Source: Owenia fusiformis (Eukaryota). From it: a stretch of 64,000 nucleotides of DNA. Below, piece by piece: positions 5,719 to 44,200 of the stretch. Under the pieces are notes generated by a model. That model searched no databases. It had not been told where the DNA came from and saw only the letters and a program-made list of their open reading frames with translations. The stretch spans positions 30,008,001 through 30,072,000 of the forward strand of contig CAIIXF020000001.1 in the NCBI GenBank assembly GCA_903813345.2, given 5' to 3'. Positions within the stretch are counted from its first letter, which is position 1, and each line of letters starts with the position of its first letter. Made by a program: the position numbers and the translations under genes.

Positions 5719-8700
5719 ATGCAAGACGGTATGTACTTATTCAATTTATTTATAACATATATGTATCTACAGGGGACATTTTATCTTTAAATATCCAGAT
5801 CCTGGGTCTCATCTGATAATTTGTTTTCAATCTCATCATGTGCTAAAAGATTTTATGGTATGTTTCATTTTTTCCATATTCAAAACAGGAACTAAGACTG
5901 TATTAAAGGGAGGCCACTTAACCACTTTATTTACAAGAACTAATTCACATAGATATCATAAATGATTATTGTAACAGGAATAAAAGGAATGTATGAGTCT
6001 TCATGACCAACAGTAACTTGAGACTGTGTACCCTGCCCTGTGTGGTTACAGATAGCTAAAATAAAACCAACAGAGTTAATCTTATTGTGTTGTGAATAAT
6101 TTATAGAACTAGAAACCAATGGTAGAAACTTGTAATATGATCCAAGGTGTTGTAGAAACTTTGAGTTTGTTTTTGAGGGATTCACTTGTTTTTCTCTTTA
6201 AGGTCAACATCTTTGAACCGCAATGAATTCAAGTATTTCATAAAAGATGTTTGAATACTAAGTTCAAATGACCTGACTATTTCCTCATTGTAAATTATAA
6301 TTCCCTAGACCCTGTACCAGACAAAAAAACGCTGTACCCAAATACATGATTTTTTACATGTATTTGTAAATTTTCTATCAAATTCCAGCAGTGGGGCGAA
6401 CATTTCCTAATATTGATTCCTCCTGTCCCTACTGGGATTTATGTTAGTGTGAAATTCAGAAAAAGTTCTAGTGATTTAGTACCACTTTTGAGAAATGGAG
6501 CATTTATGGCTGAATTATTGCAATATGGCACTTTGCCTTGTCTGCTGTTAGCTCTCAGCTACATAATTGCCATAATTAGAAGTTTCATTGTGTGTGAAAA
6601 ATTACTATGGTATAATTATTTCCTCAATATATATTTAAAGGGGCTCAGTCTCTAGCCCTGCCCCATCCCATCTACCCCAAATTAACAAAATCAGCTTAAA
6701 ACGTAAAAGCATAAAAAATCAGCTATCCTCAATCATAACATAAATTCCTTATAGTAAATCTAACGATGTGAAATGTATTAGTGATAACCAAAGCTTTAGT
6801 TCACTATGGCTAGACTTATGGTGATATTACCACTCAATGAAACTTGAAAATGTAGGAACAGGTTGGAGGTCTATGTTATGTACCCGAATGTCTATAGTTC
6901 ATGAGATCTAGATCTTGTTCTTGAGTGGGTTGTCTAAACATTCAGTGCTAACACTTATCCCAGAGTTTGAACATATGCTATATGGTTATAAAATTAGATC
7001 CACTTACGTAACAATCAAGTATAACAAGTTTGAAGAAAAGAAATCAAAGGAACTTTTATTTCTTGTACATGATAGTGTGTTTGTCTGATCTAAATAGGCA
7101 GAATCAATATATGTACCAAAAATGAGGCAACGTCTATTGGTAGTTGACATTTTACATTGTTCCATTTTCTTGATGACTGGAATACTGTTTTCTGGGATAG
7201 CCATGGAGTAGGTAGCAAAAGTATCTTTGAAGATTTTCCATGGTCACCATGATATATATGTACTCTGTTTTTCATAAACAATTCTGTTAGGGAGCGAACA
7301 GACACTGCATGGATGTACTGTGTAGTACATGTATAGAGGCAAACAGTTGAGCTTTTACCCTTCTTTAGACATATATAAGCCTATCACTCTTTAGAACAGG
7401 GAGATTTCTTTAGCCTACCTACATGTATTGTACAACGCTCATTTGTATTGGATTTTTACAGACCACGTTAAATGAATATATTGTTCTGTTTCATGATCAG
7501 AGTGAGCATAATAAACTAATCTGTATTATGTAGAATCTCTAGGAAGCTTTAGCCCATGCTAATACAAAATATAATGAAAGTTATAGTTATCAATTTATCA
7601 AAAATCTCCATGGGGAAAGTCTTCCAAGGGCAATACAAATAGTTATGTCTGAGCGAGAAGATAATGAAGATTGAAAATGGATTGTTTTAATTAAAGAATG
7701 TTAAATATATAGTTCTCATCGGCTAGGGCTAGACATGTCAAATTATATTTAAGGAATAAAGAATCCTGTATCATTCTTCATTGGAAATTTAAAAGCATGA
7801 GTGCATGTACTAACCCATACACATAATGGATGAGGGCAGAGCCAGAGTACATTGTCAGAATGGGTTAGTAAATGCATGAATGCAATTAAATCCAATAAAG
7901 AATGATACTGGGCTCTTCATAGTTGCAATTCAAATATATATCACTAACTATCACTCCTTTATAAAAATGACATTGTTCAGTTCTTTATGAAACCATAATG
8001 CACTTTGATGATGCCACTCTTTTACTAAAAATGGCACTGTTCAGTTCATTATAAAACCATAATCCACTGTAAAATAATCTTTCTTCTCAGTTGACCATAT
8101 ACCATCAATTAATGCACTGAAATGCTCTAAGCTGATTGGCTCTGACACACTAGGCATTTGAATTTCTATTAGTATGGTCATCACTTTTTATCTCTAAAAA
8201 TTGTTTGAATCTTCATTTTTTATGACTGGATGCTGGCATTCAGCAGTTGATATCTGTTAGAGTTGTTTCACTTTTATAACCATTTGGAATATGTGCAACC
8301 AGGTGGTCACATTTTGTAATGTTAATGCCTGTTGCACTTGTAGCATATTCTCAGAAACAATGAACAACATTGTGTATTTGGCATAGAAAACAATTTATGT
8401 TGAAATTGTATTGGTTGTGTTATATTCCCCTTGAGTTTCTATTTAACTAGCGTGCTGAATTTATAAATAGGGCAGTATAATATTAATCCAGTGAATATCT
8501 TCACCCTGATAAAGTATCAAGAATAGCATCTGTCTATGAGTAGAGCATTTAGCCTTGGTCTATTTACCAAGCACAAGCTCTAATTGCCTCTCCTTACATA
8601 TAGCATAACCAGCTGATATGAACAGATACCACTTAATTAGATTATCTCTGTAGTTTCAGTTTTTTGGAGGGAATGTCACGGTGGCTCTGATGTTATTATA

Positions 8701-11700
8701 ACCTGACTCTTTTAGTTGGTCCCAGCAAGATACACTTTAGACATGTATTTTACATTTATTTTAAATTTGTTTTTTATCAATTTGTTAACCATATACATGC
8801 CATCACAAATGCAGTCACAGTATGTCTTATCTAGAGATTAGTTGCAACTTGATATCAATAACTGGAGGTCAGATATATCTTAGATAATCTCAGTATTAGA
8901 AATAATCCAAAAATCAATATTTGTGATGCATATCTATATTCATAAATGCATTCCCTCTGTGCTATATCTGAATGTACCATGGATTTTCCTGCTGACATAT
9001 ATTACAATAAATCTTGAAAATTGCATTGCAGTATCTTTATGTCATGTCACTATTTTTTATGTCATGTCACTATTTTTTATGTCATGTCAATATTATTGAT
9101 GTCATGTCTGTCATGTTCAATATACAGTTACATGTATTTGTCTGCTCACTGGGACGTGAAGCTACATTCTTAAAACATCTTACAAAACTGCTTCATATAT
9201 ACATGTACCTTAAACATATCTAAGTATGGCATAAATTATTTTGTTTTTCAGAAAAAATTGTTATGACCCCTACCAAAAAGGGAAACACATCATGTATAAA
9301 AATAGAAAAAGTTCCCAAATTCTCCCTGGATGAGACAAAAGTTGCACATCAAGCTGGTGGCGAACACAGTGGGCTTGTCATCAATAAAAAACAAGATGGT
9401 GAGTACATAAAATAGAATCCCAGTTAATAAGCTTCACCAAACCTTGTCTTTCCTCCTACAGTATCATAGGGTGGGATTGCAAAATTTGTCTGCTATGGGG
9501 ATCATGTTATTTTTGGGGGTGTGTCATTATATTAAAGAAAATAGTCTATGTCAGTTTGAAGTCCAATAACACAAGGAGCAAAAGCTATTGAAAATGGCTG
9601 TAACATACAATACTCTAAAATGTATGTGTTCCTCTGAGTTAAGAAAATAATGTTAAAGTTTCTTGTCTGCTATGGAGGATTGTCCACAAGTTCAAACTTC
9701 AAATTCAGATCCCTTATAGCTTACAAGAAACTTTTTTTATAACATAATTATTTCGATCCCACCTTATGAATATGAATTTATTAAAATGTATAATAGCTTT
9801 ATGCGAGTTTTCTCAAAATATATTGACGTTTTTTATTTTATTATTTTTACCCAAAAATGAGAAAGAGTGTGGGAATTGGGAAAGTCCACAATCAAAGGAA
9901 CATCTAGATCTGCTCTGGTATAATGTTGCACAATTAATCAGTCCATGTTTATAATTAAGCGTATGTTATTTCAGAGAGTGGTGAGGCACGAAAGCAAGAT
10001 CTACAACTAGAGTTCAAATGTTTCCTGGTTGATGCTAAAACTGGCAGTCATGTCCCTGTAAGTTGCCATTCATGAATTGCCCATGCTCTAACCAGGATTT
10101 ATGTTAGTTTACCAAAATCACCTAAAATATTCAATAGATTATAGTGTAATGTTAGGAACCTTTTTCAGAAGGATGAAGTAGGATAAAGTATTTAGTTATT
10201 CAGGCTGAAATCCTATTCATAAAACTAAAAAAGTGTTTGTTTTATGGCTATTATATTGCTATATCAAGCATTTTAATTGTTTTTTCTTTATTCTTTATTT
10301 GTAGGAAAACCGAGCATTAAAATTCTGGTTTCAAGAGGGCACTGACTATTTAGATAAAGTAACCGGGGCTTATGAATTCTTCAAAGAACTGGTAAAGCCT
10401 GATAAGTTTCCCAGAGGTGAGTGGGGTGATAGCGCAATGTACATTCGTTCATCCACCCATTCATTTTTCCAGATCATATTATTGGACAGATTTGGTTCAA
10501 ATTTTGGAGGCTGATGTCATATGGGCATAGGACCTCTACTCTAGCGTTGAGAAGCAATTTTTAATGTGGCCACTCAATTCAAAATGCCCACCATATTTCT
10601 TATTTAAGTTCAAATTTTAAATTTTCAAGATGGCCACTGAATTTCAAAATGGCCACCATTTTCACGAAAAATGTGAATTTTGATAATTTCAATACAAGTT
10701 TTAGAATTTGGTTCAAATTTTATAGGTTAATGTTTTGTGGGCAATTCTGCTCAGCAGGAAAGCCTTTTAAAAGAGGCCCCTCATTTTAAAATGACCTCCA
10801 TTATTTTATGCAATCTTTGATAACTCAAATATTAGTTAACAGGTTTGATTTAAATTTTATATGCTGATGCCTAAGGGGCATAGTCTAATAGTCTTTATGA
10901 GGGAATCAATACATATGTAACTAAAACCATTATGAACCTTCATACCAAATGTTTTATTATCAGACAGGATATAAACAATAAAATATTTTACCACGTTTTA
11001 GATTACGTCGGATTCATCAAGAAGGTAATGAAACAGCTGCAGGATGCCAAATACACTCAGATAAAGAAGGTTGATTGTGAGCTGACCCCTCTAGCCAGTA
11101 GTGATGAACCTCCACCCAGTCCAGGTAAGCTCATGACTTATTTCTCTTAGGCCCCTATATATAATAAACACATGGGGGAAAGATGGTGTACTACTATCTT
11201 TACTTTGCAACACCCATTTTAGATGTTAAGGATGCTATAGCAAGAAGCAGACATTTTCACTATTCCCTTATGTTCACTATTAAGTCATTGGCCTATTCCA
11301 TTCAATGTAAAAAAACTGCTTATATATCACACCCGGTGATCGCGAATATGGGACGGAGGGGGAGCAGGCAATTTCTGCTAGGAAATTCAACAAATCTGGA
11401 AGATTTATTTTTTCAAGAAAAAGTTTACTATTGAATTGCTTAATGGATAGGCGCATGGTATAGTAGAATATGTTAGGTTTTCTGGGATTTTTTCTGAAAC
11501 GATACGTATCTAAGGTGTGAGATCTATTAAAAAAGGCGCGAGGCCATCAACAGGCACAAATCAACGTTTTTGCTATAAATCAAGCAACAATGGCCTGGAC
11601 GACCTGTAATAAATACTTGTAAGTGATGTTATCATAACTAAATTAATGTCATTGCTGAATTTATAAAATAAGTTTCCATATGTGAAATTAAAAATAATTA

Positions 11701-14700
11701 TTATTTTTTATTTTACGTATGGAAACTTATTTTATAAATTCAGCAATGACATTAATTTAGTTATGATAACATCACTTACAAGTATTTATTACAGGTCGTG
11801 TAGTCCATTGTTGCTTGATTTATAGCAAAAACTTTGACTTTTGCACGTTGGTTGCGTTGCGCCTTTTTTAATAGATCTTATATCTTAAAAGAGTATCGGT
11901 TGAAAAATAATCCTAGAATACCTAACATATTTTATCATACCGTGCGCTTATCCAATTTGCAATTCAATCGTAAACTCTGTCTTGAAAAAATAATTTTACC
12001 AGATTTGTTGAATTTTCTAGCGGAAATTGCCTGCTCCCCCCTCCGTCCAATTTTCACGATCACCGGGTGTGTATATGTACTGTATGAATGTACCTAAAAC
12101 TATCTATATACAGGAGATATTGCTTTATCTGGGTCATTCATAGTTTGCTTCATCATACCCAAAACTATCTGTAAAGACCCATTTCATACCTAAAACTATC
12201 TATCAAGATCCATTTCTTGAGACACGGTCATTCTTCAATGCATTGTTTGCTGTTTTCTCATCATCACATTTCTATGGCTCAACATTTTAGAGGTAGGTTT
12301 GGGGTTTGTTCAGGCAACATCAAAATTAGGTCATGGATCAAATTATATCGAGTAATGACAGCCTAGATGGGACCTGATATAACCATTGACCTATTGTGGA
12401 CTCACTGACAAGAGAAATATGTCGGGTTACAGGTTCAGCTTTAGGCCACTTATCTCAACTTTAATGATAACTCCACTGAGAAAGTTCTGCAACATCATTA
12501 TGTACAAATTATATGTGTTCTATTTTTTTCAAACTATATTATTAACGTGGTAAGTAAACCCAACACAAAGGTAGCATGTTGCTGCTGAATGCATGAATAT
12601 GTCAGAAATTGCCTTCTTTTTTGCACTGATCTGTGAATTATGAAGGAGAAACTCCCTAAATTAAACTGTTTTGGTTACCCATGCAATATTTCTTCAGTAA
12701 TCTGTTTTCTATAATTTGTAATATTTTGAAAACATTAATTTGTGTGATTTGTGTTAGTGTTATAATCTTCAGTCTACAGTTTTTTTCATGATTAAAACAT
12801 ATCAAAAAATTCATGATCAATTTTGTGATTAACTTTCATGCATGACTTGCAATGTCTGTACAAAGAGGGGAGAAAACCCCAATCATAACTCTGCCCTATC
12901 TCAACATAAAAATGAAACTCCTCCATCCATTTGATTGGTTTAAATTTGTGATGCCCATCATCGTTGCTGATTTGATTGGTTGAAAATCATTTTGACCATA
13001 TCACAAAGAAACAAAACACTGTTTTGTAAAAGCTTTTCAAATAATAAAGTTTTAGTCTCTGGCATAGTTGAACAATACAATGACTTGTTATGACACACCA
13101 AGATGGAGAAAGGTGTATTAAATATGATGATTTGTTCAATGAAGGATCACTTCAATGTGTGATAATCAATAATTGAAAAAAAAATTTAAAATATGAAGGA
13201 GTTGTTTTGAAGAGGATATTTTGAGCTCAGTTATGAACTGTGGTTTATTTCCTCCTTTTGTCATTATATTTATATTTTATCATATGAATATAGAATATTT
13301 AAAGTTCATATCTATTTGATTCTTACTTTTATATAATTTCAGAATTCAATAACCTCCCCGAATTCCAGATTCTTTGCCTCCGACCATCTAGTAATCATAT
13401 GTATACATATAGACAAAAGTGACTAATATTCTAGTTTTTTTTATTAAATTTTGTATTAATTTATAATTTATTAACAGTTGCTTTTGTTGTCAGTAATTGA
13501 TTGTTGATACAATGATAAGTGTTTTGCTATTTTTTGATGTTTTGATTTAATTAAGATTATGAATTTTCAATCGCAATATCACTTGTAAGATGTCTACTTA
13601 TATATTGTTAAATGGGCAATGTTGTATGGATGATAAAGATTGAGCTTTAGAACTAAGAAGTACTACTCAATTAAATTACAGAATTACTCAACAAAAAAAA
13701 GAAACTTTTATAGAGTATTGTATATCCATCTATTTTGAGAATTTTTGTTTTCAAATATTTCGAATAATATAACTATACTGACCCTAAAATGTGTTTTAAA
13801 ATAAAACTGAGCATTTCTTCGTTTTGGATGTATTATTAAATGAAAAATCTTGATATGACATATTGTATAACTGAAAATCTCTTACTGCAGGAAAAAAAGT
13901 GGATACAAGACCCAAAGAGGTGATCATGCAAGAGAACCTTCTACAAATCTTAGAGTCTGCATATCCAAATATATTACATATGGAGGACCTTGTTAAGTGA
14001 GTACATTTACAGTGAAATTCAACAAATTACAATTTTGAGTGCCTTAGTAGTCTTGTCTCGTGTCCAAAGGTGCATATTGAAGCTGGTCATTTCAAGTAAA
14101 GGGGTATATTTCTCAAACATATATTTCTCAAACATACAGTCTTTGCAGTCTTTTGTTTAATACATCATGGGTGCCATGCTTACTCCAATGAATTTTTAGT
14201 GAAGAATAAATCGAGACCTCAGGCTACTTTTAAAATTTTTGATCAGAAAAATGCAACTGCTCCAAAATAGTCATTTGAACAAGCTGGATTCAAAACCACT
14301 CTTATAATCCCCTTCTTGACATTTATTTCCACAAAAGAAAGATGTTTTTGAGAGGGAGGCACTGGCAGGCCCATAGCCAGCTTTTACCGAAGGGGGTTCA
14401 CTTTTCAAAGAAATCCAGGGAGTTCACATTTCACCATTTTGGCCAAAGATCACTTGAAAAAATGCTCAGAATGGTGAAAACTGCATGATTTTGAAATTTT
14501 GAAAAAAAAATTGGCCAAGTTCGCTCAAATTACCTAAACCTCATTGGCTACAGATATGGGAGTGAGTCATGTTACACAGGAAGAAGTGGGAGTTTTTTCA
14601 GTGTTCATATTAAATGCATGGTTGTCAATACACATGACAGAAGTCTTAAACCAATTTGAATTTCAGAAGACAATTCTTAAATATTCAACTTGTTCCATGG

Positions 14701-17700
14701 TTTAGATAACTTAACATTATATGAACATACAGTATGCAGAAATATTTATTTAATGTTGCTGTTTTTCCAGTCACAATCTAGTCAGGTATGTTATAGGTGT
14801 ATGTTACTGCACTGAAGTAATTTTTTGACAATCAAATACATGTTCATTTCATGTATATAGATTGCAGTTTGCTCTACATATTGGTGTTAGCCTACTAAAT
14901 ATATTTTAAGGCATGTTTGATTTCATTTCCTAACACTCAAAAAATGTTTATTTTTTGTATTGATTTAATCTGTTTTCTTCAGATTAAATACTCTTTTTGT
15001 TATTTTTTTAATGATTTTATCTGTTTTTCTCGGATGGTGTCTTTTCTTCCATTAGAGCTCCAAGAAATAGATCCTTAGATAGTGGGTTATTTTTTAATTC
15101 TTTTTTCCCTGATCATATTAACAAAAGTTCTCTGTTATCAAACAATAGACTTCAGATAAACATAACCATTAGATGAAGCTAGGTGAAAGTATGATATTAG
15201 CTTTAAATGTTTATACAAATATTTGTAAATTAAGATTTACATGTTTTTCTTTTTTCCAAGTTATGTCCTTTACTTTGAAGTGACTAAAGCACAATCTGTT
15301 CAACTTAAATTTCCAAATTAACCTTCAAACTGAAATACTCCGTCCACTATCCCACGTCACCCTGTATTGATGTCATAATATTGTAGTCTGTTTATCCCAG
15401 TTTTAACATTTTAGTCCAGTCCACCGTGTATGTTTTAACATTTTAAGTGTGACATGATTTTAATGTCCTGCACATGAATATTGTGTCGTTTAGTTGTATT
15501 TTGTAATTGTTTATTGCACAATTGCTTCATTCATTACAGATGTTCAGTAATTATACCGTGTAGTCTTCTATAGACTATTATAAGTAATGTTAACTAGCGA
15601 TATAGAATACAGATTGCATTGGGATCACACTTTCTGAATGAAACTTGTTGGTTTTGGCCTATTTCTTGTTCATAAGGAGGGTACCTGAACAGACTGAGAT
15701 ACATACCAGGAACTTGTACCTTGAAAAGGTGATCACTACTACACACCATATAAACCTAAGATGCATCCAAGCTATGTGTCTGACTGAATCATGGATTACT
15801 TAGTACACCATTGTGTTTATTATCCCATCGAATGAAGTTTGGAGGGATATAGGGAATGCCTTCGTCTGTCCGTCCATCCATCCGGGCAATAACTCAAATA
15901 CTGTTGGCCTAATTTTGTTCATATTTTGTAAACATATACCCTATGGGAGTAGAAGTTCTGCTCGAAAGCCGATTTTCAAAATGGCAGCTCATTCAAAAAT
16001 GGCGGCCATTTTAGTGCTGATTTTACGGTAATTTAGGTACAATATGTAAGACTGTAATACCAATATGTTTTAAATGTAAAAAAAATATACAGGACATTAA
16101 TAAAGCTAGAAATGTAGATCTTAAAGAAGCACATGGCAGCCATCTTGAAAAATGGCGGCCTTTACTCGCTATTTTACAATTTTTGCTGTAACTCGAAAAG
16201 TAATGGAGCGATTTTGTTCAGATTTTGTATGTGAATACTATAAGCATGGCACACTGTCTGATTACACTTTTGGTAGAAGGCGGCCATTTTTCAAACTGGC
16301 CGCCATTTTAATGTATTTTACTATAACTCGAAAAGTAGTAGAGTGATTTTGTTCATATTTGGTATGTGAATGACACTTTTGGTAGAAGGCGGCCATTTTG
16401 AAAAATGACCGCCATTTTAACGTCTTACTATAACTCAAAAAGTAGCAGAGCGATTTTGTTCATATTTGGTATGTGAATACTATAAGCATGGAGAAGGCGC
16501 ACTGTCTAATGACACTTTTGATAGAAGGTGGACATTTTGAAAAATGGCTGCCATTTTTGCTACATACTTTGTTTGTAAAAATGCCAGCCATGGCTGTTCA
16601 ATGGGATTTGCTACGCTTTGGCGTTGCTGTTGTCTAGTTTACACATGGAGTTAAACTGTTGATTGTTTGTCTTGTGTGAACTAGCCATCATCCAACTATT
16701 CTACAAGTTCCTGCTAATAATTTAGTCTTTACAGGTGTCCTGATAATATTTCTTACCATTGTAGATATGCAAGTATGTCTTCTTTTGTCCCTTAGTTTGT
16801 CATTCAAACTTTATTCTTCCTCTGTCTTTTAATGAAACAACAAAAACTATGTTCATGTAGTCATTTTAGTCTCTGGGTGTGTATCTATTAGCAGCACGTC
16901 GATGACTGAAAATTGTTATGATTCTACACAAAGATGAAATGTGAATGCATATATTAGATAATTTTAGAATATAACTGAGCAATGAATCATCTTTTCTTTT
17001 ACTTGTTATATTCTGTTTTGGTGTGTCAAGTTTTTAATGTTTTCATTGGTCCATGGTGTGTTTATTCTTAACCACAAACCACTGTTATCAATGTTGACAC
17101 TCACATGTTACTTGTATTAGTGATCATTTTGGATAGTTTGACTTAAAATGAGACCATCCTCTCATTACTTATATGTCACACTGTATAGTATACATAGCTG
17201 ATGCTATTGCATATCTTGTAGGATCACTGGTTCAGTTGAGGAGACATTTATTCACCAACAGCTGCTTGTACTCCAAGAGAAGGGACTTATAACAGAGAGA
17301 GAGAATGGAGCTTGGGTCAGGAAAGTCAAGGATGAAGCTGCAAGTGAGTAAATCTTTGGCTTGTATGATACAAGAGAGGTGAAATTCCTAATATTCAAGC
17401 AGCACCCAATATTCAATCATTGTTTGTTTTTTATAATAAGAAAGCACAAGGGTCAACATTTGAACTTTACAAATGCACAAAATCTTCATGAAGTAGATCA
17501 TAAACCTGATACAACCAAACGTACCTAGTCGTGGTTTAGCAATTGTTATTGAACCATTGTTTCAAAATTTTAAAACACTTAACTTGAATTGAATTCTGTC
17601 TCACATTTTCCTTATTTTATTTGATCACATATTTCTTGTCTTTAACTTGGGTAAATCAGTTATACTACTCATTATTTGTTTAATAAATTAGTGTTTGCTA

Positions 17701-20700
17701 TTATTGAAAAAAACTTTTCATGAAAATGACGATAATGATCTTAGTCTTTAATGATATTACTTGTTGTATTTTGCAGAGGTGCAAGTTGTGAACAACATGC
17801 CTGTTTATCACAAGAAGGAAGACAAGCCCACCATTGCCATCATAACCTCAGACTACTATGAGAAACTGGCTGTCGATTCCATGATTGAGGACAAAACCAC
17901 ATTCGTCAAATACAAAACTGAAGGTAAGATTTCATTACATTCATATACAGTAAAACCTGTAAAGTGGAACATCTCTGTTAGTGGAACACTTGCTGACCCC
18001 AAAATTTGCAGTCTTAACAACAAGAGTTGCCTGTTTGTAGAGGAAATGAATTCATTCATGGCTTAAAGTTGATTGTTTCTTCATTTTCAGGTGAATCCAA
18101 TGTGTATACTATTGGTTTCATTGGGCCCCACAAGGTTGTCTCCACAAAACTTCCCCAGATTGGTCGCCAGAGGGCAGCACAGATCTCCTCTGGCAACACT
18201 ACCACACGATTGTTAGGTAGGTTAAATTCACATTGTTTATTTTTTGTCCTGTGAATGTTCATCTTCCTGGTTATGATTGATAACAAAATCATATATGTTT
18301 TTTCAACTAAGTAAGAAGTTTTGTCTAATGTTGATTTTGATGAAATCTAGATACAAGAAACATCAATATTTTTTCCATATTTTGTGTTTGTCTGGGAAAT
18401 TCTAAAGGGACAGATGGTGTTTCAAGGCAAAGTGTGAGAGTTCAGACATGTTTAAATTGATGCTAGCCAAGTCTGGATTTTTAGGGCCTGATTTTTTTAA
18501 AATATAATCAAATTCAATTCTGTATTTCACATCTCTTTCAATGTAACATATGACAATGTATTAAAAAGACAATTAGATTTCTATAATAATTTTTCGTAAT
18601 ATTTTTGAGACACTGTTCTTAATTTTATGAATCTACATTTCTGAGTATTTCATTCAGTTCATTTATTCAAGACATAACATAACCATGTTTTAATAGCTCT
18701 AAACTTCATATTTTATTTTCATTCCAATTTCTTTGACATATTTATTTAATAATGTCCGTAAACTGGAGCATGGTGTACATGGGCATGTGGAGCAGGGTGG
18801 TATGGTGCTGGTACATAGTGGGGATTATAGGCTGCCTTGCTGCAGACCTTAGTAGAATCATCAAAGGCAGTACCTAGAACAAGCATATTAATGATAATAA
18901 ATGTTAGGATTGGTTGAACAGAGGGATATAATTTCAAATAACAGACTAAAGGCTAGCTCTTGTAATTTTAACATGTACAACACACGGAGTTATGTCTCAG
19001 GCGGGCTTTTCATACATAAGTAACCTGAAAGAGGTGAATGTCTTACCGTATGGGCATCTCATGTAGAAAGGCTTGCAGCAGCTACATGTCTCTCCATTCT
19101 TGTTGTCACATCCACACTGGATGAAGCCATTGTAGTTGTAACGGTCAGCAAAGAGACCACTGGGGTTGTAGGCGCACTTGCCGTCACAGGGGTCTGAAAT
19201 TATTGTCCGTTATTTATCCATTATTTGATTGCAATCACAGTATAATGAAATTGAGTTTTGATTCTACTGTTTAACAATAACATTCTAATCAAGTTATTCC
19301 ATACAGTACACGTGTGTCTTTGCTCATCATCATCATCATCATCAATGAAATATATGTTAGCTCTTGTTCTTGTATAGTTAGGTTTTTTAAAATGAGTTCA
19401 ATTCTATTCTGAACACTTTATATATATAAGATATTTCCCAAAATATTCAACCCTGTGATCCTTGTTTATTCTTTACTTCTTGCTTTTGCTAATAAGATTC
19501 GGTATTATTTTCTAAACTCACTGTAGTGTCCATAGTATGCAGGTTTGTAGCCGCAGACTCCCTCTTCTCCCAGCTGTCCAGCATTGCACAAATCTCCCTT
19601 GCAGAAGAAGTAGAAGGACTCTCCCTGGTAGGCACACTGTCTGTAGGCAGATACACCAAGGGGGAGGTTCTCTGGGTTGGCACACCCACGGTATACAACT
19701 GGAATGAATAGGGGATTGAGTGAAAAATCTCTGATTTTGAATTTCATAAAACCTTCATAATAATATCAGTGATTTACCTTTCAAAAGCTATTTCCACACT
19801 TTGTAAAATCAAGTCATTCTCCTTGTTCAAAAATATGAAACCTAAACATTTCATAGAGATGTGGGTCGGGGATACTTACGTCCATTTTTGTCCCTACGGA
19901 TGAAGCATGTTCCAGAAGAGCAGTGCCATTTGTCAAGGCTTTCAGCATCATCTTTGTCAGTCAGAGCGCATCCCTCATAACCAGCGTTGGAGGAGACACG
20001 CTTCCAGTAGTTCACGTGGTAGCTGTAGCCTGATGGGGCATAGTTGCAGTCGAAGCATCGGGCTGGAGTAGTTACAAAAACAATCATTATCATTCAAGAA
20101 TTCATGATACTTGTTCTAAGTGCCATTCATAGATTTTGTGATATCTTATACATTCACTGTAGTTCCATTAATGTCAAGACAAAAATTATATATTTTTTAT
20201 ACATGTGTTTGTAAATGCTGCAGCATTTTAAAGCAGAATTCAGAACCGCCCCATGGCCATATAAAGACAACAGAGAATGCATTTTATCGATATATGAAAT
20301 AGTTCTAACTGTACTTACATCCATATCCCTCTGCCAGAGCTGCGGCAATTCCTGCAATAAAGATGGCTGTTCCAAACATGTTGATTGCTTTTTGAGTCGA
20401 CTTGAACTCTGATAAAAATTTAAGACCAAGGATCTTCTTTTATAGCACTTGATACAAATGAGGATCGGCATTAATTGGCCCAAAGTTGCATATATTAGTT
20501 AATTTGTTCAAAAATACACCATAATAGCTTGTGGATAAATAGTTGAGTAATCATTTCCAACACAGGATTTCAGTATAGGCCTTAAGGTTGCAATTTTATG
20601 TTTTTCACAATGACTGCAATGAATGTTTGAAATTAATCTAAATATCAGGGATTCAAAAAGACCATAATATTATTGCAGTTTTAATCATGAAGATTAATCT

Positions 20701-21917
20701 TTATAAATAAGTATATTTGTAATGATGATGTCATGGAATCCAATGTGAACTCTTATTTCAATTGGCTTGGCCTGATTTATTTAATTACTAATTAGTGAGG
20801 CCATTGTTTAGTGGACCAGACAGAGCAGTGTTTGGAATTTAACACTTTATTGTTGGTGAGATAAACACAGTAACATAATTGAGGCCGATATCTTTTCAAT
20901 AGGAGGCAGGACTTGAATAGGTAGCAGTTCACTAATTTTCTCCAGTTGGTTGTTCTTCTCACCTGTCCCATTAGTTTATGTGTGAATATTGTGAGTCTTA
21001 AAACCCTGCATACTACATACTACATAAATCAAATTAATATCACATTAATATCACATTCTCTCATCATAATTATTTATTAACATGTTTCAAGTTTCGATAT
21101 CTCAACTTTTTGAGATTTTTCATCTAAAGATGAATTGTTGTGCATTTTAACCTTTGATAAAATGAGATGTTTCTGTGTATTTACAGGTAGTTTCTCTGAG
21201 GTGGAACATGTCTTCCTGGTTGGTGTAGGAGGTGGGGTTCCCCATTACACCGATTTCTACAAGCATGTGAGGCTTGGTGATGTCGTTTGTTCTGCTCCAA
21301 ATCACAAGGGCAGCTGTTACATCTATTGCGACAAGCTGAACATGAATGAGGAAACTCAGGAGATCACATACACCTTGAAGAGCTGGTCCCCTCCCTCGGA
21401 TATCGCATTGAAATTGATGCAAACCATGCTGGAAGAAAATGCCGCCAACCTCAGTAATTCTCCCTGGGAAAAATTTGTACAGGAGGGTCAGGAATACTTA
21501 CAAGTCCAGGAAGCTGATTTCTCGCGCCCCCTTCCAGAGTCAGACAGACTCTACATGAATATCGGAGGTAGTGATGTCATTGAGGTTGGACATCCTCCAA
21601 TCCCTGATGATGCCGAATATCGCCCTAATGCACCAACAGTTCGTCTGGGAACATTTGGAGCTGGAAAACCAATAGTGAAAGATGATGCCATAAGACTGGA
21701 CTTTGCTGCAAGGCAGAATCTCATGGCATACGATGATGAATTCGATCAAGTGATGGAATCTATTGTCGGAAATAGGAAGGATAGTTTTATGTTCATCAGA
21801 GGCATAGCGGACTATTCTGATGGCACTAAGGGCAAAGAATGGGCCCCATACGCCTCACTTGTAGCTTCTGCAGCTATGAAGGCTATTATCCTTAGATTGC
21901 CCACTTTGGACTCGTAG
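5719..21917 (+). CDS. 568-aa protein: uncharacterised N-terminal domain + winged helix-turn-helix + C-terminal nucleoside phosphorylase (Pfs/PNP_UDP_1-like) domain; 10 coding exons
   Basis: Exons join(5719-5728,9252-9398,9975-10057,10305-10416,11002-11124,13891-13996,17222-17343,17777-17923,18091-18216,21187-21917) all have AG/GT boundaries and compatible phases, totalling 1707 nt with an open frame (MQDEKIVMTPTKK...LRLPTLDS*). The C-terminal part has Pfs-type motifs (IAIIT..YEKLAV, YTIG.IG.H.VV, FLVGVGGGVP, VRLGDVV, FIRGIADYSDG, EWAPYASLVASAA). The middle ENLLQILESAYP...LQEKGLITERENGAWVRK has a winged-helix pattern. The first micro-exon/start is the least certain part. Confidence 0.88.
7759..7918. 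repeat. ~160-bp imperfect palindrome (hairpin-type non-autonomous element end)
   Basis: gtatcattcttcattgga...tactaacccat pairs with atgggttagta...tccaataaagaatgatac. Confidence 0.6.
10425..10900 (+). mobile_element. Degenerate Helentron-type HINE fragment
   Basis: Residual ccatcc microsatellite and repeated aaaatggcc motifs like the intact copies at 15816, 53681 and 57855. Confidence 0.45.
11328..12071. mobile_element. Fold-back MITE: near-complete ~745-bp palindrome (arms ~370 bp, centre ~11700)
   Basis: cacacccggtgatc...gatcaccgggtgtg termini in a TA-rich context; the inner arms 11590-11700 and 11700-11830 are almost perfectly complementary. Confidence 0.88.
15816..16638 (+). mobile_element. 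Helentron-associated HINE/pearl-like element, family A, copy 1
   Basis: 5' tcccatcgaa subTIR with a partial inverted copy, (GTCC)n microsatellite, ~115-bp tandem units with aaaatggcggcc, 3' subTIR, cgctacgctttggcgttgc stem-loop and T-rich ends. Confidence 0.8.
17946..18062. mobile_element. Truncated small Tc1/mariner MITE (tacagtaaaacctgtaaagtggaac family)
   Basis: Same terminus as the copies at 37375 and 38096. Confidence 0.6.
18746..20379 (-). CDS. Secreted 231-aa cysteine-rich protein: signal peptide + Ly6/three-finger (quiver/sleepless-like) domain + chitin-binding type-2 (peritrophin-A-like) domain + His/Tyr/Pro-rich tail; nested in intron 9 of the + strand gene
   Basis: complement(join(20379-20319,20062-19880,19698-19522,19193-19047,18873-18746)): all introns are GT-AG and phase 1, total 696 nt. 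Translation: MFGTAIFIAGIAAALA-EGYGSRCFDCNY...C...WHCSSGTCFIR...VYRGCA...C...FCKGDLCNAG...NPCDGKC...GLFAD...GFIQC...MRCPYGTAFDDSTKVCSKAAYNPHYVPAPYHPAPHAHVHHAPVYGHY*. Confidence 0.88.
20405..20446 (-). promoter_or_regulatory. TATA box and initiator-like element of the nested gene
   Basis: Minus-strand TATAAAAG at 20444-20437, then a TCAGAGTT Inr-like motif about 30 nt downstream (20412-20405), then ATG at 20379. Confidence 0.6.
21187..21917 (+). CDS. Terminal coding exon of the wHTH-PNP gene (core of the nucleoside phosphorylase domain)
   Basis: Acceptor ttacag|GT at 21186/21187; ORF track 21135-21917; motifs LVGVGGGVP, RLGDVV, RGIADYSD. Confidence 0.93.
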
Positions 21918-21963
21918 CTTCTGCAGCGATGAAGGCTATTATCCTTAGATTGCCCACATTGGA
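21858..21963 (+). repeat. 53-bp tandem duplication of the last codons of the wHTH-PNP gene
   Basis: 21858-21910 versus 21911-21963, three mismatches. Confidence 0.93.
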
Positions 21964-22582
21964 TAGTCAGCCTTAATAATACAGTTCTATACCTGAATGT
22001 AGCATAGCTTTTTGTACTACTAACCTACATCTAGGCCATGGGAGTGTTGTGCAAAAGTAAAATAAATTATGCTCCGTTTATAATAAAATCTCCCAAAAGT
22101 GAACACTCTTGGAACAATGTAAAAATTGTTTAAGACTGTTCACCTTATATGGGGGTACAAGCTAGAAGTTTTACTGTATTATCGTTTGAATAAGATAACA
22201 ATAATGCTCTGCTGCAAAAAATCAATGTAGGATAGCTATTTATTTCAATACTTGGGTCTCATATAGTTAAGGTCTGCTAACATTGATATTATAAATGAGA
22301 TGGTAGAAAATATTAACTAGAATGCTTAATTTTGCCAAATGCACAATGCTGACAGCCTGTAATGTCCTTTTTGAATAACATTTCTCAAGTATGCAGCATC
22401 TATCAACATAAGCTAATGGGTGAGGTTGAGTGTCTGAGATTTAACAAGTATGATTATCCTACATTGGTCTATTGCAGTGGTTTATGTAATTAGATTATAT
22501 GTACTCTTGCTTTCTAAATTTATCTACTTTTGAATATCATTCCCAGCAGCACTAAACTCCTGCTAGTCTACTATTGTGTTCA

Positions 22583-30187: not shown

Positions 30188-32235
30188 CTATACTGTTTTT
30201 GTGACTAATTTGATATCATTGTCCAGTTTGTTATTTGTATGGCGTTTGCTATGTTTTGCTAAGTGATCACTCCTCATAAACCGCCGATCACATGTTGTGC
30301 AGACAAATTTTTTCTCGCCTGTATGGGTACGTTTATGTCTCGAGAGTTCATCGGATCTAGCAAACTTCCTTTCACAGTTCTCCCACTGGCAGACAAATGG
30401 TTTCTCCCCTGAAGATACAATAGACATTTCATAAGTATTTATTTACACAAAGTACCTGATATTTATCATAAGTGCATATCATGTTATAATATTGTGTTAA
30501 CATATCACTGATTGAATGTGCATTCAGTGATCACTCGCTGTATGAATGGAACAAATATGATAAATGGCTTATATGAACTTTAATCAGGTAGGTGATTGGA
30601 TAACTGAATTATCATGTGACTACTAGATGTACAATCAATCACTACACTGTTTATATCACTGCCACAAAAAGGACACGTGAATGTACACACGTAATGGGCA
30701 GATGTGTTGTTAAATCCCATGTACATGATATTGACCAGGCTGAGGCCATGAACAGTACACCCACCTTTTACATAGTTTGCACCTAATTCACTTATCATTT
30801 ACATTAGTTCATAGTTTTGAATAATTCCTTACCTGTATGAGTTCTGATATGGGCCTTCAGATGAGAACTTTTGAAGTATGTTTTGTTGCAGTTTGGGAAA
30901 CTGCAGACATGACTTCGCTGACGCATTGTGAGATTATCGGTGGAGATCTTTTCAGGAATGGGGGTTGTTACTAGGGGTGCTGGGGCAATACGGCAAAGTT
31001 TATTGTCCCCTCCATTAGTATTATTGTTCACAACAATGACCTGCACAATAGGCGCATTGCTTATGGGTATCAGTGTACCCTGAACATCTGCATACATTAC
31101 TGGTAGTCCATTTATTGGCATTCTCTGCTCACTATTGATGGATACCTTGTTAATATTGAATGCATTGTTCTCTAATTGTTGGGGTACATCAGACTTTATG
31201 GCAATGTTTTGATAAGTTGAAGTTGGAGTCAATGGCGGGGTCGATGAAACAGGAGATGATGTCATCATTCTTGGTGCAAACTGGTTTGAATGAGGTTGAC
31301 TGTATGGTACATGGCTCGTGCAAATAGGAGACGATGTTCTTGAGATCGGCATGGTCAGAAAAGATTCGTTGGAATTACTGTTATTGAAGTTCATCGATTC
31401 TTTGGTCATGTAGTCTGGAGTGGGTGGGGGTGTGGAGTAAGAGATACTGAAGTTTTCAACTGGTGTTTCTGGCATTGCTCTTGCCTCAGTAGCACCAATC
31501 AAATGAGGCAGTGACATGTCATCATATGGCGGCATTCTTTTACCCATTAGCAACTGAAAATAAATAATTACATTTATGAATTTACCTATCATAAAGGACT
31601 ATCAAGGCAATTCATACTTTAACAATGCCAAAATATTTTACAAAAAACTATAATATAATTTTAACAGGATAAGTTCATTTTCATTTATTTATTGTAACCT
31701 CTATTGTATCAAAAAACAGGATGTAAACTAGTTAAAGTGACGTAAACTAAAGGCTTTATCCATAACTGGTTCTGTATCAGAGTGACATGACCGAGACATC
31801 AACCTATTTAACAACAATAAACAACAGTGAGTGAACTAAAATTACATTTTAATGGCTAAAGAAGGAAAATAAAAAACAAACCTGGGCAAGCTTAGAACGT
31901 TTCTTGAACGGTAGACTGGAGCAGGCCATATCCCGCATCATTGGTCTTTTGCGTGGGGGTAGCGACATATTCCCTTCTGGTCGAAGCTCTGTTCGTTCTG
32001 AAGGTGCGGTTAACCAAGTGTCGTTTGATTCACTGTCAGATTCGCTTCTACTCGGTGATGAACTTCCTTGCGACTGAGGTGTCATGGGTGCAACATCTAA
32101 GTTTGGTGATGATGGACCACGTATTGAAAGCAATGTATTGATTGCGTCGCACTCAACTAAAGTCCTTGAAGTAGCCGAATCTGCACTACATGCCTCTCCA
32201 TCATGATAATCATCCTCTCTACCAGTTGTCAACAT
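30188..32235 (-). CDS. KLF10/11: Krueppel-like factor 10/11 (TIEG/cabut orthologue), 431 aa, three C2H2 zinc fingers
   Basis: complement(join(32235-31882,31553-30833,30408-30188)), 1296 nt. The fingers [12 protein letters not shown] / [10 protein letters not shown] / GEKKF..FMRSDHL are characteristic of KLF10/11. There is also an N-terminal Sin3-interaction-like helix ([11 protein letters not shown]), an MTP motif and an IAPAP repression-domain motif. Confidence 0.92.
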
Positions 32236-32616
32236 TATGTCTGAAATACATAACAACGATTCATAATCAATGATCATGCATTCATTGGCTGTTTCAATGG
32301 TATTCAAGACCCACCCATGGCCACACATCCCATCATCAAGGCTACCATGCTTCCCTAGCATGATCAGGTGTAGTAATCTACCAGTACTAAGTCAGCCACA
32401 GTTCACATGCCATGAGCATGATGAAAACAAACAATATATTCTATGTTCTGGCCTACATAAATGGTTTTATTGATCCATTATAGTATTCCGAAGACTTTTG
32501 ATAATCTATTAAGGATAAATTAATGTAAATCTGCAATTACAGCGCATTCAAAATTGATTTTTGATTTTGATTTTGCAATTTTCCCATTGAACAGCTGATA
32601 TGTAAGCATGACTTAC

Positions 32617-41200: not shown

Positions 41201-44200
41201 CTATCTAGACATGAATAAGTGAACACAAAGGGATTGAATGAATAAGTGAACACAAAGGGATTGAATGAATAAGTGAACACAAAGATAGAAACAGTAGAAA
41301 CAGGCAAAACTTGTAACTGTATCTTTTCGAGTGAGTTCATATCTCTCTTCGGTCATGTTCTCATTGGCATCATACATGTCATATAACCTAGGCTATTTAA
41401 TAATCAACTAACTTTGTCCACAAAATGATAGATGGGTTACATTAACTGAACTCACCTCTGTGTTTGTAGAAGATCCTGATATACTGGAACAGCTTGGTGA
41501 AGAGATTCAATGGTGATGGGGTTGCAGATGTCTTATTCATATTTCTAATCAACTTAGCCCTCCCAAACTTCCACTCAGTGTCTGACTGTGCCTGAATTCG
41601 TTGATACGTGTCTGACATCATAGCTATGAGCAGATTGATCAACACAATCAGTGTAACGATAAGGTAAATTCCAAATACAGCTTTGACTAATGTAATTGAC
41701 CATACTGGGCTCCTGTTTATTGGTGGTAGGTTTTCTGGCTCTACGAGGCCAAATAGAGCGAAGAAAAGTAGCTCTAAAGTGTCGAGAGGGCTGTCAACTT
41801 GGGCACCTCCTCCTCCTGTACCATCTCCCAGTGTCACATTATAAGTGGGCTCAGCAAAAACTGGTTGGTATATTGCTGCTAGATGGAGGGTAAATCCAAG
41901 AATAAATATTGAAAGGATCACCATGAATCTGGTTAAGTCTTTCATGAGGTCTCTGATGATAATTGCCCATGGTCCAAACAGATGATGGAATGATAAGAAG
42001 TCTAGTACAGTCACAAAGCAGAGTAATAAAGCGAATCCAAAGAATTGATTCCTGACATATAAACACACAAGTCTGTCTTCGCCTGAGAAGGCAAATCCGA
42101 TGATGTGGATTGTAACAGCCATAGCACTTATGGCGACGATGATAACCTTGATCCAACCAAGTCCAGCTCGGTCTCCAGGGTTTGTCAACTCAGATACCAG
42201 CATCCCAGAGAGCCATGCTAATAACAGCCATTCATACCAGGTTGGTATGAGACTCTCAGATTCCCAGATTGGTCGTAGAGGGTAGACAATTGTCAGGAAG
42301 TAAAGTAATATTAAATATATATGAGAGACTAGATACGCCATGAACTTTATAATAGGGATTTTGTTAAACCGATGGCGCAATGGTAGAGAAAACGCAATCC
42401 ATACTGGAGGGAGGAAGAGAAATGCCATGAACAGCATAATTCGTTTCCAAGATGCCCAGCGCAGGTTCCCCACCCATACATCAGATAAATATTTTTGTAC
42501 TGATGGTTGAGACATCACATGTTTTTGTTCACATTCTATTAAAACATCCAAAAATGGTGTTCCTTTACTATCGAGAGCTTTCAATAGCATTCCTGCAGAG
42601 TTGCCACTAGCAGCTATTGACATTATATCCACAGCCATTGATTCACAGTATTCACTGGCCAGAGTCAGATCCTTGGAACGTTCCTTCTCCTTGAAGGACA
42701 ATATAATGAAGTTTTTAGCCATCTTTGCTGCTGTATCTGCTGGTGCAGGTGAGAGGAGGATGAACTCTCGGATGCTGCGATTGTCATTCATCTTGCTGAG
42801 GACCATCAGATCAAACACAAACTGAAAACCACAAAAGAGAAATAGTCGCCATCTGAATCCTATTTTTGAGTGAATCATCAAGAATAAACAACACTGAACA
42901 TGTACAGATTTTTGGGGTAAAATCATTTATTTGGACTTTCATATAATGCACAAATTACATTTTAGGAATAGCAAAATTTACGTACATAAAATTGCATTTC
43001 AATGGACATATCATTTTAAAGTACAGGTCTAGGAACAATATGATCAAGCAATCAACCATGCAGTACATGTCTTCTTTAAATGTGAAATATCATACTTCTA
43101 TGGTTTATAAATGGTTTGTCACCAAAGTTGCCCAATGAGCTTATGAAGAATCATCACCTTATTATCTTGCATCAAGCGCTCAGTATTGTGATCTTTCTTC
43201 ATAAGGAAGCTCACTACATCACTATGGTTGGCTGATGCTGCAAAGTTGACAGCAACCTTGCCATCTTTGGATTCATAATTAGGAGATGCACCACTCTCTA
43301 TAAGCAGTTTAACAACACTCAGGAAGCCTGCCTTGGCAGCAAAGTGAAGGGCTGTCCATTGATTCTGAAATATAAGACCATATAGCATAAGTATACAATG
43401 TCATGTATATGTACCTATAATGAATGTTCAAAATTGGATTGAGTTGGGGTTTGCAGGGTATAACTACATTTTCATTTATCATTTAATAGACTACTGATTA
43501 CTCTGGTAAATATGATACATGCACATGTCATTTTTTAATTCAAATTGAATCTTATTTCAATTAGCATCTTAAAAAGCACAGGTAACATCTTAGAAGAGAA
43601 TGTTCCTATAATAAAACTTTCAGAGATATATTCAGGTGTTCATACTTTATCACAGCTGTTAATATCAGCCCCCTGGCCAAGTAAGAGAGACACCAGATCC
43701 AAATGGCCATTAGCTGCAGCCAGGTGGAGTCCTGTCCTGCCTCGTTTGTCCTTGAGGTGCAACTGGTTGGTGGATTTACTGAGTAGTAGACTGACCACAT
43801 TTGTATGTCCACTCTGACAGGCATTGTGGAGAGGTATTGCACCCTGAAATATGGATAGCATAAGAGGCTAATCCTAATGATGCAACTTATACATTATTGA
43901 TATCTACAGACTTGCAATTATATGTACTACATACATACCAATTTTCAATTGTGTTCTCAATTATTTTGGTAAATAATAGCAAATAACTTTCCTGACTTCT
44001 TTGTTCACTACAGGCTTAATCAATTATATGCTGGAGTATACTTTTAATAAAGATTGGACTATAGTATAAGCAGTAGTATTGTCACCAGGGATTGTCACCT
44101 CATGCATTCATGTTTACGGCAAGCTACTGTCACAGCTGCTAAAATATTATATTCAAGCTTTAGAAATAAAAAGCACCCAGCACACATTTTCTATGAAGTG

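Follow-up and report, generated by a model that had tools for sequence, protein, structure and literature searches.

Effector-class domains of the purine nucleoside phosphorylase (PNP) fold break down ATP as part of bacterial defence against phages, and the same has been shown for two eukaryotic examples, as described in passages of Rousset et al. 2023 (bioRxiv 10.1101/2023.01.24.525353). The eukaryotic PNP domains assayed in those passages, one from a fungal NLR-like protein and one from a sponge Death-domain protein, were both ATP nucleosidases, and the substitutions Cap17 D472A and DtcC D353A led to loss of activity in the bacterial proteins. The same source reports Cap17-like PNP proteins in arthropods and nematodes, with D. 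melanogaster Q8MRM6 (CG12065), Apis mellifera A0A7M7MVF0 and C. elegans H2L0A5 (H14E04.2) as examples, and places these arthropod and nematode members in one clade with Cap17 and DtcC. It also states that the fly, bee and worm proteins bear a domain homologous to Zα ('Cap17-like PNP + Zα-like domain'), and finds it 'tempting to speculate' that (d)ATP is degraded upon recognition of foreign nucleic acid. A 2024 review merely restates that PNP domains occur in eukaryotic immune-like proteins, PNP goes unmentioned in the account of Zα evolution by Herbert 2024, and CG12065 is found elsewhere in the literature as a high-occupancy mRNA target and in a SUMO-proteome list, with nothing on function. 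Here we describe a gene of the annelid Owenia fusiformis that occupies positions 5719-21917 on the plus strand of a 64,000-nucleotide stretch of contig CAIIXF020000001.1 (hereafter the window, meaning the whole of that stretch). In its product of 568 amino acids (aa), an N-terminal domain peculiar to the family (aa 1-150) is followed by a winged helix (Pfam HTH_69) and then by a PNP/Pfs-type domain of about 330 aa; judged by its sequence, the gene is the Owenia orthologue of the protostome family typified by Drosophila CG12065 and Caenorhabditis H14E04.2. The idea of a sensing effector is not new, being already in print, in the passages cited above, as speculation for the arthropod and nematode orthologues.

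The assignment to this family was made by comparison with congeners of the published accessions Q8MRM6 and H2L0A5. The Owenia protein aligned collinearly with the Drosophila willistoni protein over aa 4-560 (43% identity, E 9e-149) and with the Caenorhabditis brenneri protein over aa 6-564 (33% identity, E 1e-82), and the same list of 120 matches also contained Apis mellifera LOC551214 and proteins from five Drosophila species. Judged by these relatives, CG12065, A0A7M7MVF0 and H14E04.2 share with the Owenia protein the collinear three-part architecture and the Pfam pair HTH_69 plus PNP_UDP_1 (for the score of the latter in Owenia, see below). Whereas the passages of Rousset et al. mention only arthropods and nematodes, Owenia is an annelid, and the members named among the matches listed came from annelids, molluscs, nemerteans, a brachiopod, flatworms, Seison, a tardigrade, nematodes, a nematomorph and many arthropods. 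Names from deuterostomes or from outside Bilateria were absent from the matches listed, which comprised two lists of 120 matches and 30 proteins that were looked up. Entries for uncharacterised proteins did occur in these lists, as the initial annotation of this DNA had anticipated for its homologues. Searched with the family profile, 1.84 billion representatives yielded 9113 matches at E≤0.001, 439 of them at E≤1e-30. Annelid, mollusc and arthropod proteins were 43-60% identical over their full length, and the family tree roughly tracked species groups.

The gene is real, and it is transcribed and spliced. Exon boundaries were obtained by tblastn of the annotated Owenia fusiformis protein (P0001; 570 aa, UniRef name 'Winged helix-turn-helix domain-containing protein') against the window, which produced ten plus-strand blocks, after which a script tried GT/AG sites. 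The resulting ten exons have canonical GT/AG joins, and their joining reproduced P0001 up to residue 560 or beyond. The length of 568 aa is the same as that of the spliced product proposed earlier from the DNA letters, and the motifs listed with that proposal, namely the winged-helix stretch ENLLQILESAYPN...NGAWVR, LVGVGGGVP, VRLGDVV, IRGIADYSD and W.PYAS..A.AA, were all present in P0001. Exon 1 (5719-5728), placed by the GT/AG exon search, carries the start codon and aa 1-3 (MQD). Exons 2 (9252-9398), 3 (9975-10057), 4 (10305-10416) and 5 (11002-11124), delimited by tblastn and the GT/AG search, together span 9252..11124 and encode the N-terminal domain (aa 4-158). The winged helix is divided between exon 6 (13891-13996; aa 159-193), which holds a linker and the first half with the LESAYPN motif, and exon 7 (17222-17343; aa 194-234), which holds the second half with helix 3 and the wing. 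The N-terminal third of the PNP domain is encoded by exons 8 (17777-17923) and 9 (18091-18216), which together (17777..18216) cover aa 235-325 and include E263, the equivalent of E. coli Mtn E12. Exon 10 (21187-21917; aa 326-568) supplies the remainder of that domain, with GVGGGVP, RLGD, a clade-specific insert at about aa 361-476, E510 and D534 (in IRGIADYSD), and includes the stop codon at 21915-21917; all of these features are on the plus strand.

Transcript evidence came from one RNA-seq run and three contig sets placed on positions 17000-22100 of the window. The joint 17343>17777 was crossed by three RNA reads, and the joints 17921/3>18089/91 and 18214/6>21185/7 by two reads each; all three are of the GT..AG type, and all three are contained in the same spliced contig of 2110 nucleotides. 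RNA depth over exon 10 reached about 10. Exons 1-6 are supported by identity to the annotated protein and by conservation across phyla, the reads having covered 17000-22100. The open reading frame (ORF) at 21189-21914 is 100% identical to P0001, and the whole product equals P0001 apart from the last residues, the genome ending in ...PTLDS* and the annotated protein in ...PTLDSQP. This difference arises because a 53-nucleotide tandem duplication (21857-21963, plus strand; two copies, 94% alike, detected by Tandem Repeats Finder) spans the stop codon, so that the annotated end comes from the second copy, translated in a different frame. The two copies could not be joined by any GT/AG intron. Contigs from three runs, one of them spliced RNA, crossed the duplication without a gap, which indicates that it is present in the organism and that the C-terminus as read from the genome holds for the runs concerned. 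Position 21928 was A, not G, in all four runs.

The three-part architecture put forward in the initial annotation was borne out by a Pfam match to HTH_69 and by matches of the predicted structure to MTA/SAH nucleosidases (MTANs). HTH_69 was found at aa 169-228 of P0001 (E 2.6e-07; 30.9 bits, cut-off 27) and in all of 20 orthologues, which were taken from annelids, molluscs, a nemertean, chelicerates, crustaceans, beetles, Daphnia, a barnacle and a mite. Exon 6 alone matched HTH_69 at E 6e-4, and the other single exons gave almost no Pfam matches. PNP_UDP_1 was detected in 15 of the 20 orthologues and had no match in the Owenia protein at E≤0.1. An AlphaFold2 model of the full chain, built from the 20 orthologues, reached a predicted local distance difference test score (pLDDT) of 83.5 and a predicted template modelling score (pTM) of 0.83. 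The top PDB matches of this model in Foldseek were MTANs, with 3bl6 at E 4e-11 and a template modelling (TM) score of about 0.75 on the target, at 12-16% identity. Pfam detected no NACHT, NB-ARC, Death, TIR or SLOG domain in the Owenia protein or the 20 orthologues.

The N-terminal domain, which the earlier description had set apart as about 150 aa of unassigned kind, continues to stand apart. The AlphaFold2 models build it from β-hairpins, two helices and a strand, at a pLDDT of about 80-90. It had no Pfam match in the Owenia protein or the 20 orthologues, and a separate model of aa 1-232 (pLDDT 82.1, pTM 0.56) had no match at E≤0.001 when compared by Foldseek with PDB and BFVD. A search of the ESM Atlas with the N-terminal domains of P0001 and P0325 gave no usable match, and among the best 150 representatives the domain was confined to the P0001 protein family. 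Conservation in the alignment of the 20 orthologues runs along the whole chain, including aa 1-150; by element it was 0.89 for the N-domain helix at 119-131, 0.80 for the PNP core and 0.47 for helix 3 of the winged helix. Weak structural matches of the N-terminal domain to a ribosomal protein, HflK/SPFH and vault were rejected at TM 0.2-0.3, and its occurrence in odd contexts in P0214, P0224 and P0230 was not accepted as new architectures, these entries looking like gene models with retained introns.

Some family members carry additional sequence between the N-terminal domain and the winged helix. A Methyltransf_FA domain was present at this place in P0130, P0131, P0143 and P0146 (four of the four scanned), a second version of the family; three of these proteins are from a chiton, a nemertean and a clam, and the source of the fourth is unnamed. 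The two such members placed in the PNP tree described below grouped together inside the animal clade (SH-like approximate likelihood ratio test, SH-aLRT, 99). The Octopus sinensis orthologue (P0039-P0041) has an extra stretch of about 130 aa between the same two domains; its annotated isoforms are numbered as high as X48 and measure 703-758 aa. A PIN_3 match on P0260 was disregarded, since at 22 bits it was below the cut-off.

We examined which type of PNP domain the family possesses. Outside the family, the best representatives (1e-40 to 1e-58) comprised proteins of fungi (Aspergillus, Paraphoma, Elsinoe, Arthrobotrys) in which PNP domains occur in tandem or together with NB-ARC, as well as a PNP-STAND-TPR protein from a metagenome and a PNP-EAD1 protein; relatives of the last occur in cyanobacterial and Dehalococcoidales genomes. 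The family profile scored 150-215 bits on the fungal tandem-PNP/NB-ARC and the metagenomic STAND-TPR and EAD1 proteins, and about 15 bits on the MTANs in PDB. The fungal and bacterial effector relatives aligned with the family PNP profile over its full length, including an insert of about 100 aa that is absent from MTAN. Profile models of known systems were less informative. The PADLOC CBASS PN-effector model matched 15 of the 20 orthologues (best E 2.4e-08), PDC-M60C matched 19 (best E 4.6e-10), and the NCBIfam MTAN model PRK05584 weakly matched 14 (best E 1.9e-10), P0001 not being among them. Because these E-values are similar and the Cap17-type model also matches E. coli mtn, the PADLOC and NCBIfam scores cannot separate a 'Cap17-like' from an 'MTAN-like' domain, and such scores are no substitute for the true Cap17, DtcC, NLRN and DDAN sequences.

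A tree was calculated from 63 domains and 323 columns in a quick IQ-TREE run. It contained 24 animal rows (12 of the 20 orthologues and 12 other representatives), 17 fungal or unnamed rows, 9 bacterial rows of the EAD type, 9 of the 15 cyanobacterial loci that matched the PADLOC CBASS PN-effector model, and, as housekeeping rows, E. coli Mtn, DeoD, Udp and the catalytic part of Amn. The E. coli K-12 genes served as housekeeping references in place of cyanobacterial MTANs; an MTAN search of the cyanobacterial genomes had returned nothing above the cut-off. Left out were duplicate loci (L013, L014, L016-L018, L033), L004, a split match (L009), L031 and P0207; the loci omitted from among those matching the PN-effector model were L033 and five others (L022, L024, L026, L028, L034), which had weak or absent matches to the family profile and, in some cases, in-frame stops. 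The 24 animal rows formed one clade (SH-aLRT 100), which was sister to 14 fungal or unnamed rows (94) and then joined 12 bacterial rows (90), the supports of 94 and 90 falling under the 'star' level of 95. The four E. coli housekeeping enzymes lay outside the group made up of animal, fungal and bacterial effector-type rows. According to an approximately unbiased (AU) test, a clade uniting the animal rows with these four enzymes is rejected (delta lnL 33.8, p 0.0068); the test was run after the tree had been seen, on the very grouping that the initial annotation had named as speaking against its proposal. The tree and the AU test support the suggestion made there that this PNP domain belongs with the NLR/effector ('Pfs') type rather than with housekeeping enzymes.

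The active site agrees with that of a nucleosidase in its principal residues. In an L-INS-i alignment, E12, E174 and D197 of E. coli Mtn corresponded to E263, E510 and D534 of the Owenia protein. Across the 20 orthologues there is no change at E263, at D534, in the G-x-G-G loop or in RLGD, and the conservation of E510 is 90% or more. MTAN (E. coli Mtn/Pfs) provides the closest solved structure (3bl6) and the same three acids, but the Owenia domain differs from it in its low identity, in the extra insert and in the rejection of a housekeeping clade. Because the three catalytic acids of MTAN are kept, a hydrolytic N-glycosidase would be the most economical reading of the active site. We infer that Mtn D197, and with it Owenia D534, is the equivalent of Cap17 D472 and DtcC D353. 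Cap17 of CBASS, DtcC of Detocs, the fungal NLRN (Hyaloscypha variabilis) and the sponge DDAN are, like the putative Owenia enzyme, PNP-fold hydrolases with the catalytic Asp near the C-terminus. Unlike in these proteins, the partners of the PNP domain in Owenia are the N-terminal domain and the winged helix rather than SLOG, receiver, NACHT/NB-ARC or Death domains, and the Owenia family is slowly evolving and apparently vertically inherited. By analogy with the tested fungal and sponge domains, ATP or dATP would be the likeliest substrate.

The winged helix had been described in the initial annotation as similar to Zα and as a possible sensor of nucleic acid, and a protein of this kind could act as a stand-alone sensor-effector, in which the winged helix binds foreign nucleic acid of the Z form or another form and (d)ATP is then cleaved in an antiviral response resembling abortive infection. 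In outline the two are similar. In a Foldseek search with the aa 1-232 model, Zα domains were among the best compact matches (58-63 residues, TM 0.84-0.89, root-mean-square deviation 1.2-1.4 Å), including 1j75 (TM 0.89, 1.3 Å), 1qbj (TM 0.86, 1.2 Å), 2gxb, ZBP1, PKZ and ORF112, and in its predicted minimal shape of three helices and a β-hairpin the Owenia domain resembles the Zα domains of ADAR1, ZBP1/DLM-1, PKZ and ORF112. These matches nevertheless had weak E-values (0.03-0.1), and other minimal winged helices came close, with Rpa2 at 0.83, E2F/DP at 0.77 and the cullin WHB domain at 0.73-0.75. The Pfam z-alpha model matched none of the 20 orthologues at E≤0.01, and no Zα chain was among 19 PDB sequences matching at E≤10. 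Contacts of Zα to Z-form nucleic acid are made, we assume, by an Asn and a Tyr of helix 3 and a Trp of the wing, which in hADAR1 we take to be N173, Y177 and W195. When the family was set in register with Zα, helix 3 being placed by its hydrophobic pattern and the roles of the Zα residues being assumed as above, Tyr was found at the Tyr position in none of the 20 orthologues and Asn at the Asn position in 3. At the wing position Trp was present in 4. An aromatic residue of any kind was present there in 17, and an Arg two residues further on was invariant, and these two observations speak for a nucleic-acid sensor. On the other hand, the net charge of the winged helix was negative in all 20 orthologues (mean -3.6), and the recognition helix, helix 3, was the least conserved structural element of the protein, well below the PNP core. 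Given that no Zα sequence model matches, that the Zα Tyr is absent throughout, that the domain is acidic in every orthologue and that helix 3 varies, sensing of Z-form nucleic acid by this Zα-shaped winged helix is doubtful. The effector class of the PNP domain, and the published proposal itself in the passages of Rousset et al., speak for the nucleic-acid sensor, yet taken together with the points just listed we regard it as unlikely. What is invariant in the winged helix, in contrast to the Zα domains, is a patch made up of LESAYPN at the end of helix 1, L211 and R227. This patch, together with the higher pTM of the whole chain than of aa 1-232, suggests that the winged helix and the N-terminal domain may dock on the catalytic domain.

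Two other explanations bear on the catalytic domain. The protein could be a nucleosidase of housekeeping or stress metabolism, with the N-terminal domains providing allosteric control or localisation and with immunity not its main role. The extent of full-length conservation between annelids, molluscs and arthropods, a tree that runs roughly by species groups, the presence of members across many protostome phyla, the ordinary neighbours in the window and the matches of NCBIfam MTAN models to most of the orthologues would all fit such a role; but the AU test rejected a clade with E. coli Mtn, DeoD, Udp and Amn, and the domains found nearest to it are effector parts of NLR-like proteins and of bacterial STAND and EAD1 conflict proteins, which have the insert that MTAN lacks. 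We give this explanation a rather low probability. That the protein is a catalytically dead scaffold, or a DNA-binding regulator that has retained the PNP fold, seems highly improbable. The insignificance of PNP_UDP_1 on the Owenia protein, the long animal stem branch and the loss of the E510 equivalent in C. brenneri could be taken as signs of decay, but the invariance of E263, D534, the G-x-G-G loop and RLGD, the conservation of E510 and the position of the PNP core among the best-conserved parts argue against a loss of catalysis, and the acidic charge of the winged helix against DNA binding.

The explanation that we favour overall, and that we consider reasonably likely, is that the gene is the Owenia orthologue of this family and that its effector-type PNP domain would serve as a gated adenine-nucleotide N-glycosidase. 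By analogy with the assayed domains, the protein is probably a regulated enzyme of this kind. The PNP domain would hydrolyse adenine nucleotides, with ATP or dATP as the likeliest substrates; the N-terminal domain and the winged helix, as the pTM values suggest, would pack on the catalytic domain and gate its activity; and the enzyme would more likely be triggered by a protein or small molecule that the conserved N-terminal domain recognises than by Z-form nucleic acid bound to the winged helix. A more specific version of this explanation, that the conserved 150-aa N-terminal domain is an undescribed sensor fold and that it, instead of the Zα-shaped winged helix, controls an ATP-destroying nucleosidase, is put forward tentatively. 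Several observations weigh against the explanation of a gated adenine-nucleotide N-glycosidase. The pTM values are the sole basis for the gating role of the N-terminal domains. At the active site, C. brenneri has a Gly at the E510 position, and the EME motif of the relatives reads D-x-E-F-D in the Owenia protein. The animal clade stands on a long stem, with 1.54 changes per column, and substrate or activity may have changed along it; the tree was made with relatives other than the true Cap17, DtcC, NLRN and DDAN sequences, which makes the tie to the assayed enzymes indirect; and the match to the PADLOC PN-effector model is non-discriminating, E. coli mtn being matched at 1.8e-09. The cross-phylum identity of 43-60%, the species-like tree and the ordinary neighbours would be unusual for an immune gene in an arms race. 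Finally, full-text literature searches on CG12065, H14E04.2 and the family found no enzyme assay or functional study beyond the mention in Rousset et al. 2023.

The DNA of the window is AT-rich (GC 0.31-0.40), and no immune gene cluster was found in the stretches of it that were examined. Intron 9 of the gene contains, on the minus strand at about 18700-20320, a nested antisense spliced transcript that is weakly expressed and is seen as RNA reads opposite to the host gene; its joint 20062>20319 reads CT..AC, which is GT..AG on the minus strand. Cys-rich ORFs of this transcript at 18997-19209, 19505-19765 and 19851-20093 end in a CKGDLCN-like motif, which we take to recall Ly6/uPAR three-finger proteins; the Cys-rich single exons had no Pfam match. 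A short high-copy repeat lies in intron 8 at about 17943-17991, with a summed contig depth of about 29,000 in the DNA run, the depth of the flanking bins being mostly about 60-130 and up to about 490, and RNA reads on both strands of it had many loose ends. Exons of an ankyrin-repeat ion-channel gene, TRP-like by eye, are present on the minus strand at 41442-56402, where Pfam placed Ion_trans at 41442-42926 and Ank at 43119-43400, 48068-48358 and 56031-56402. Two long ORFs were found on the minus strand at 30804-32391, the first ending in a C2H2 zinc-finger-like stretch that suggests a KLF/Sp-type factor; the ORF exons of this region had no Pfam match. ORF pieces with …KMAAILV… and PSVRPSVRT… runs recur at 16021-16637 (in intron 6), 53509-54896 and 59046-59417 and are probably copies of an interspersed repeat.

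The Owenia gene adds an annelid member to the published fly and worm family, and the window alone gives no new principle. Among the effector-class PNP domains encountered here, that of this family is the only one kept nearly unchanged, and seemingly in single copy, in the majority of protostome phyla, the fly and worm model species among them. Three features of the family bear on how experiments with CG12065 and H14E04.2 might be designed: the winged helix is without the Zα determinants, conservation outside the catalytic part is highest in an N-terminal domain that has no recognisable fold, and the family extends to annelids, molluscs, flatworms and others. If it is true that the N-terminal domain controls the nucleosidase, protostomes would possess a single-chain 'sense and deplete' switch of bacterial and fungal effector ancestry that has been kept for more than half a billion years.

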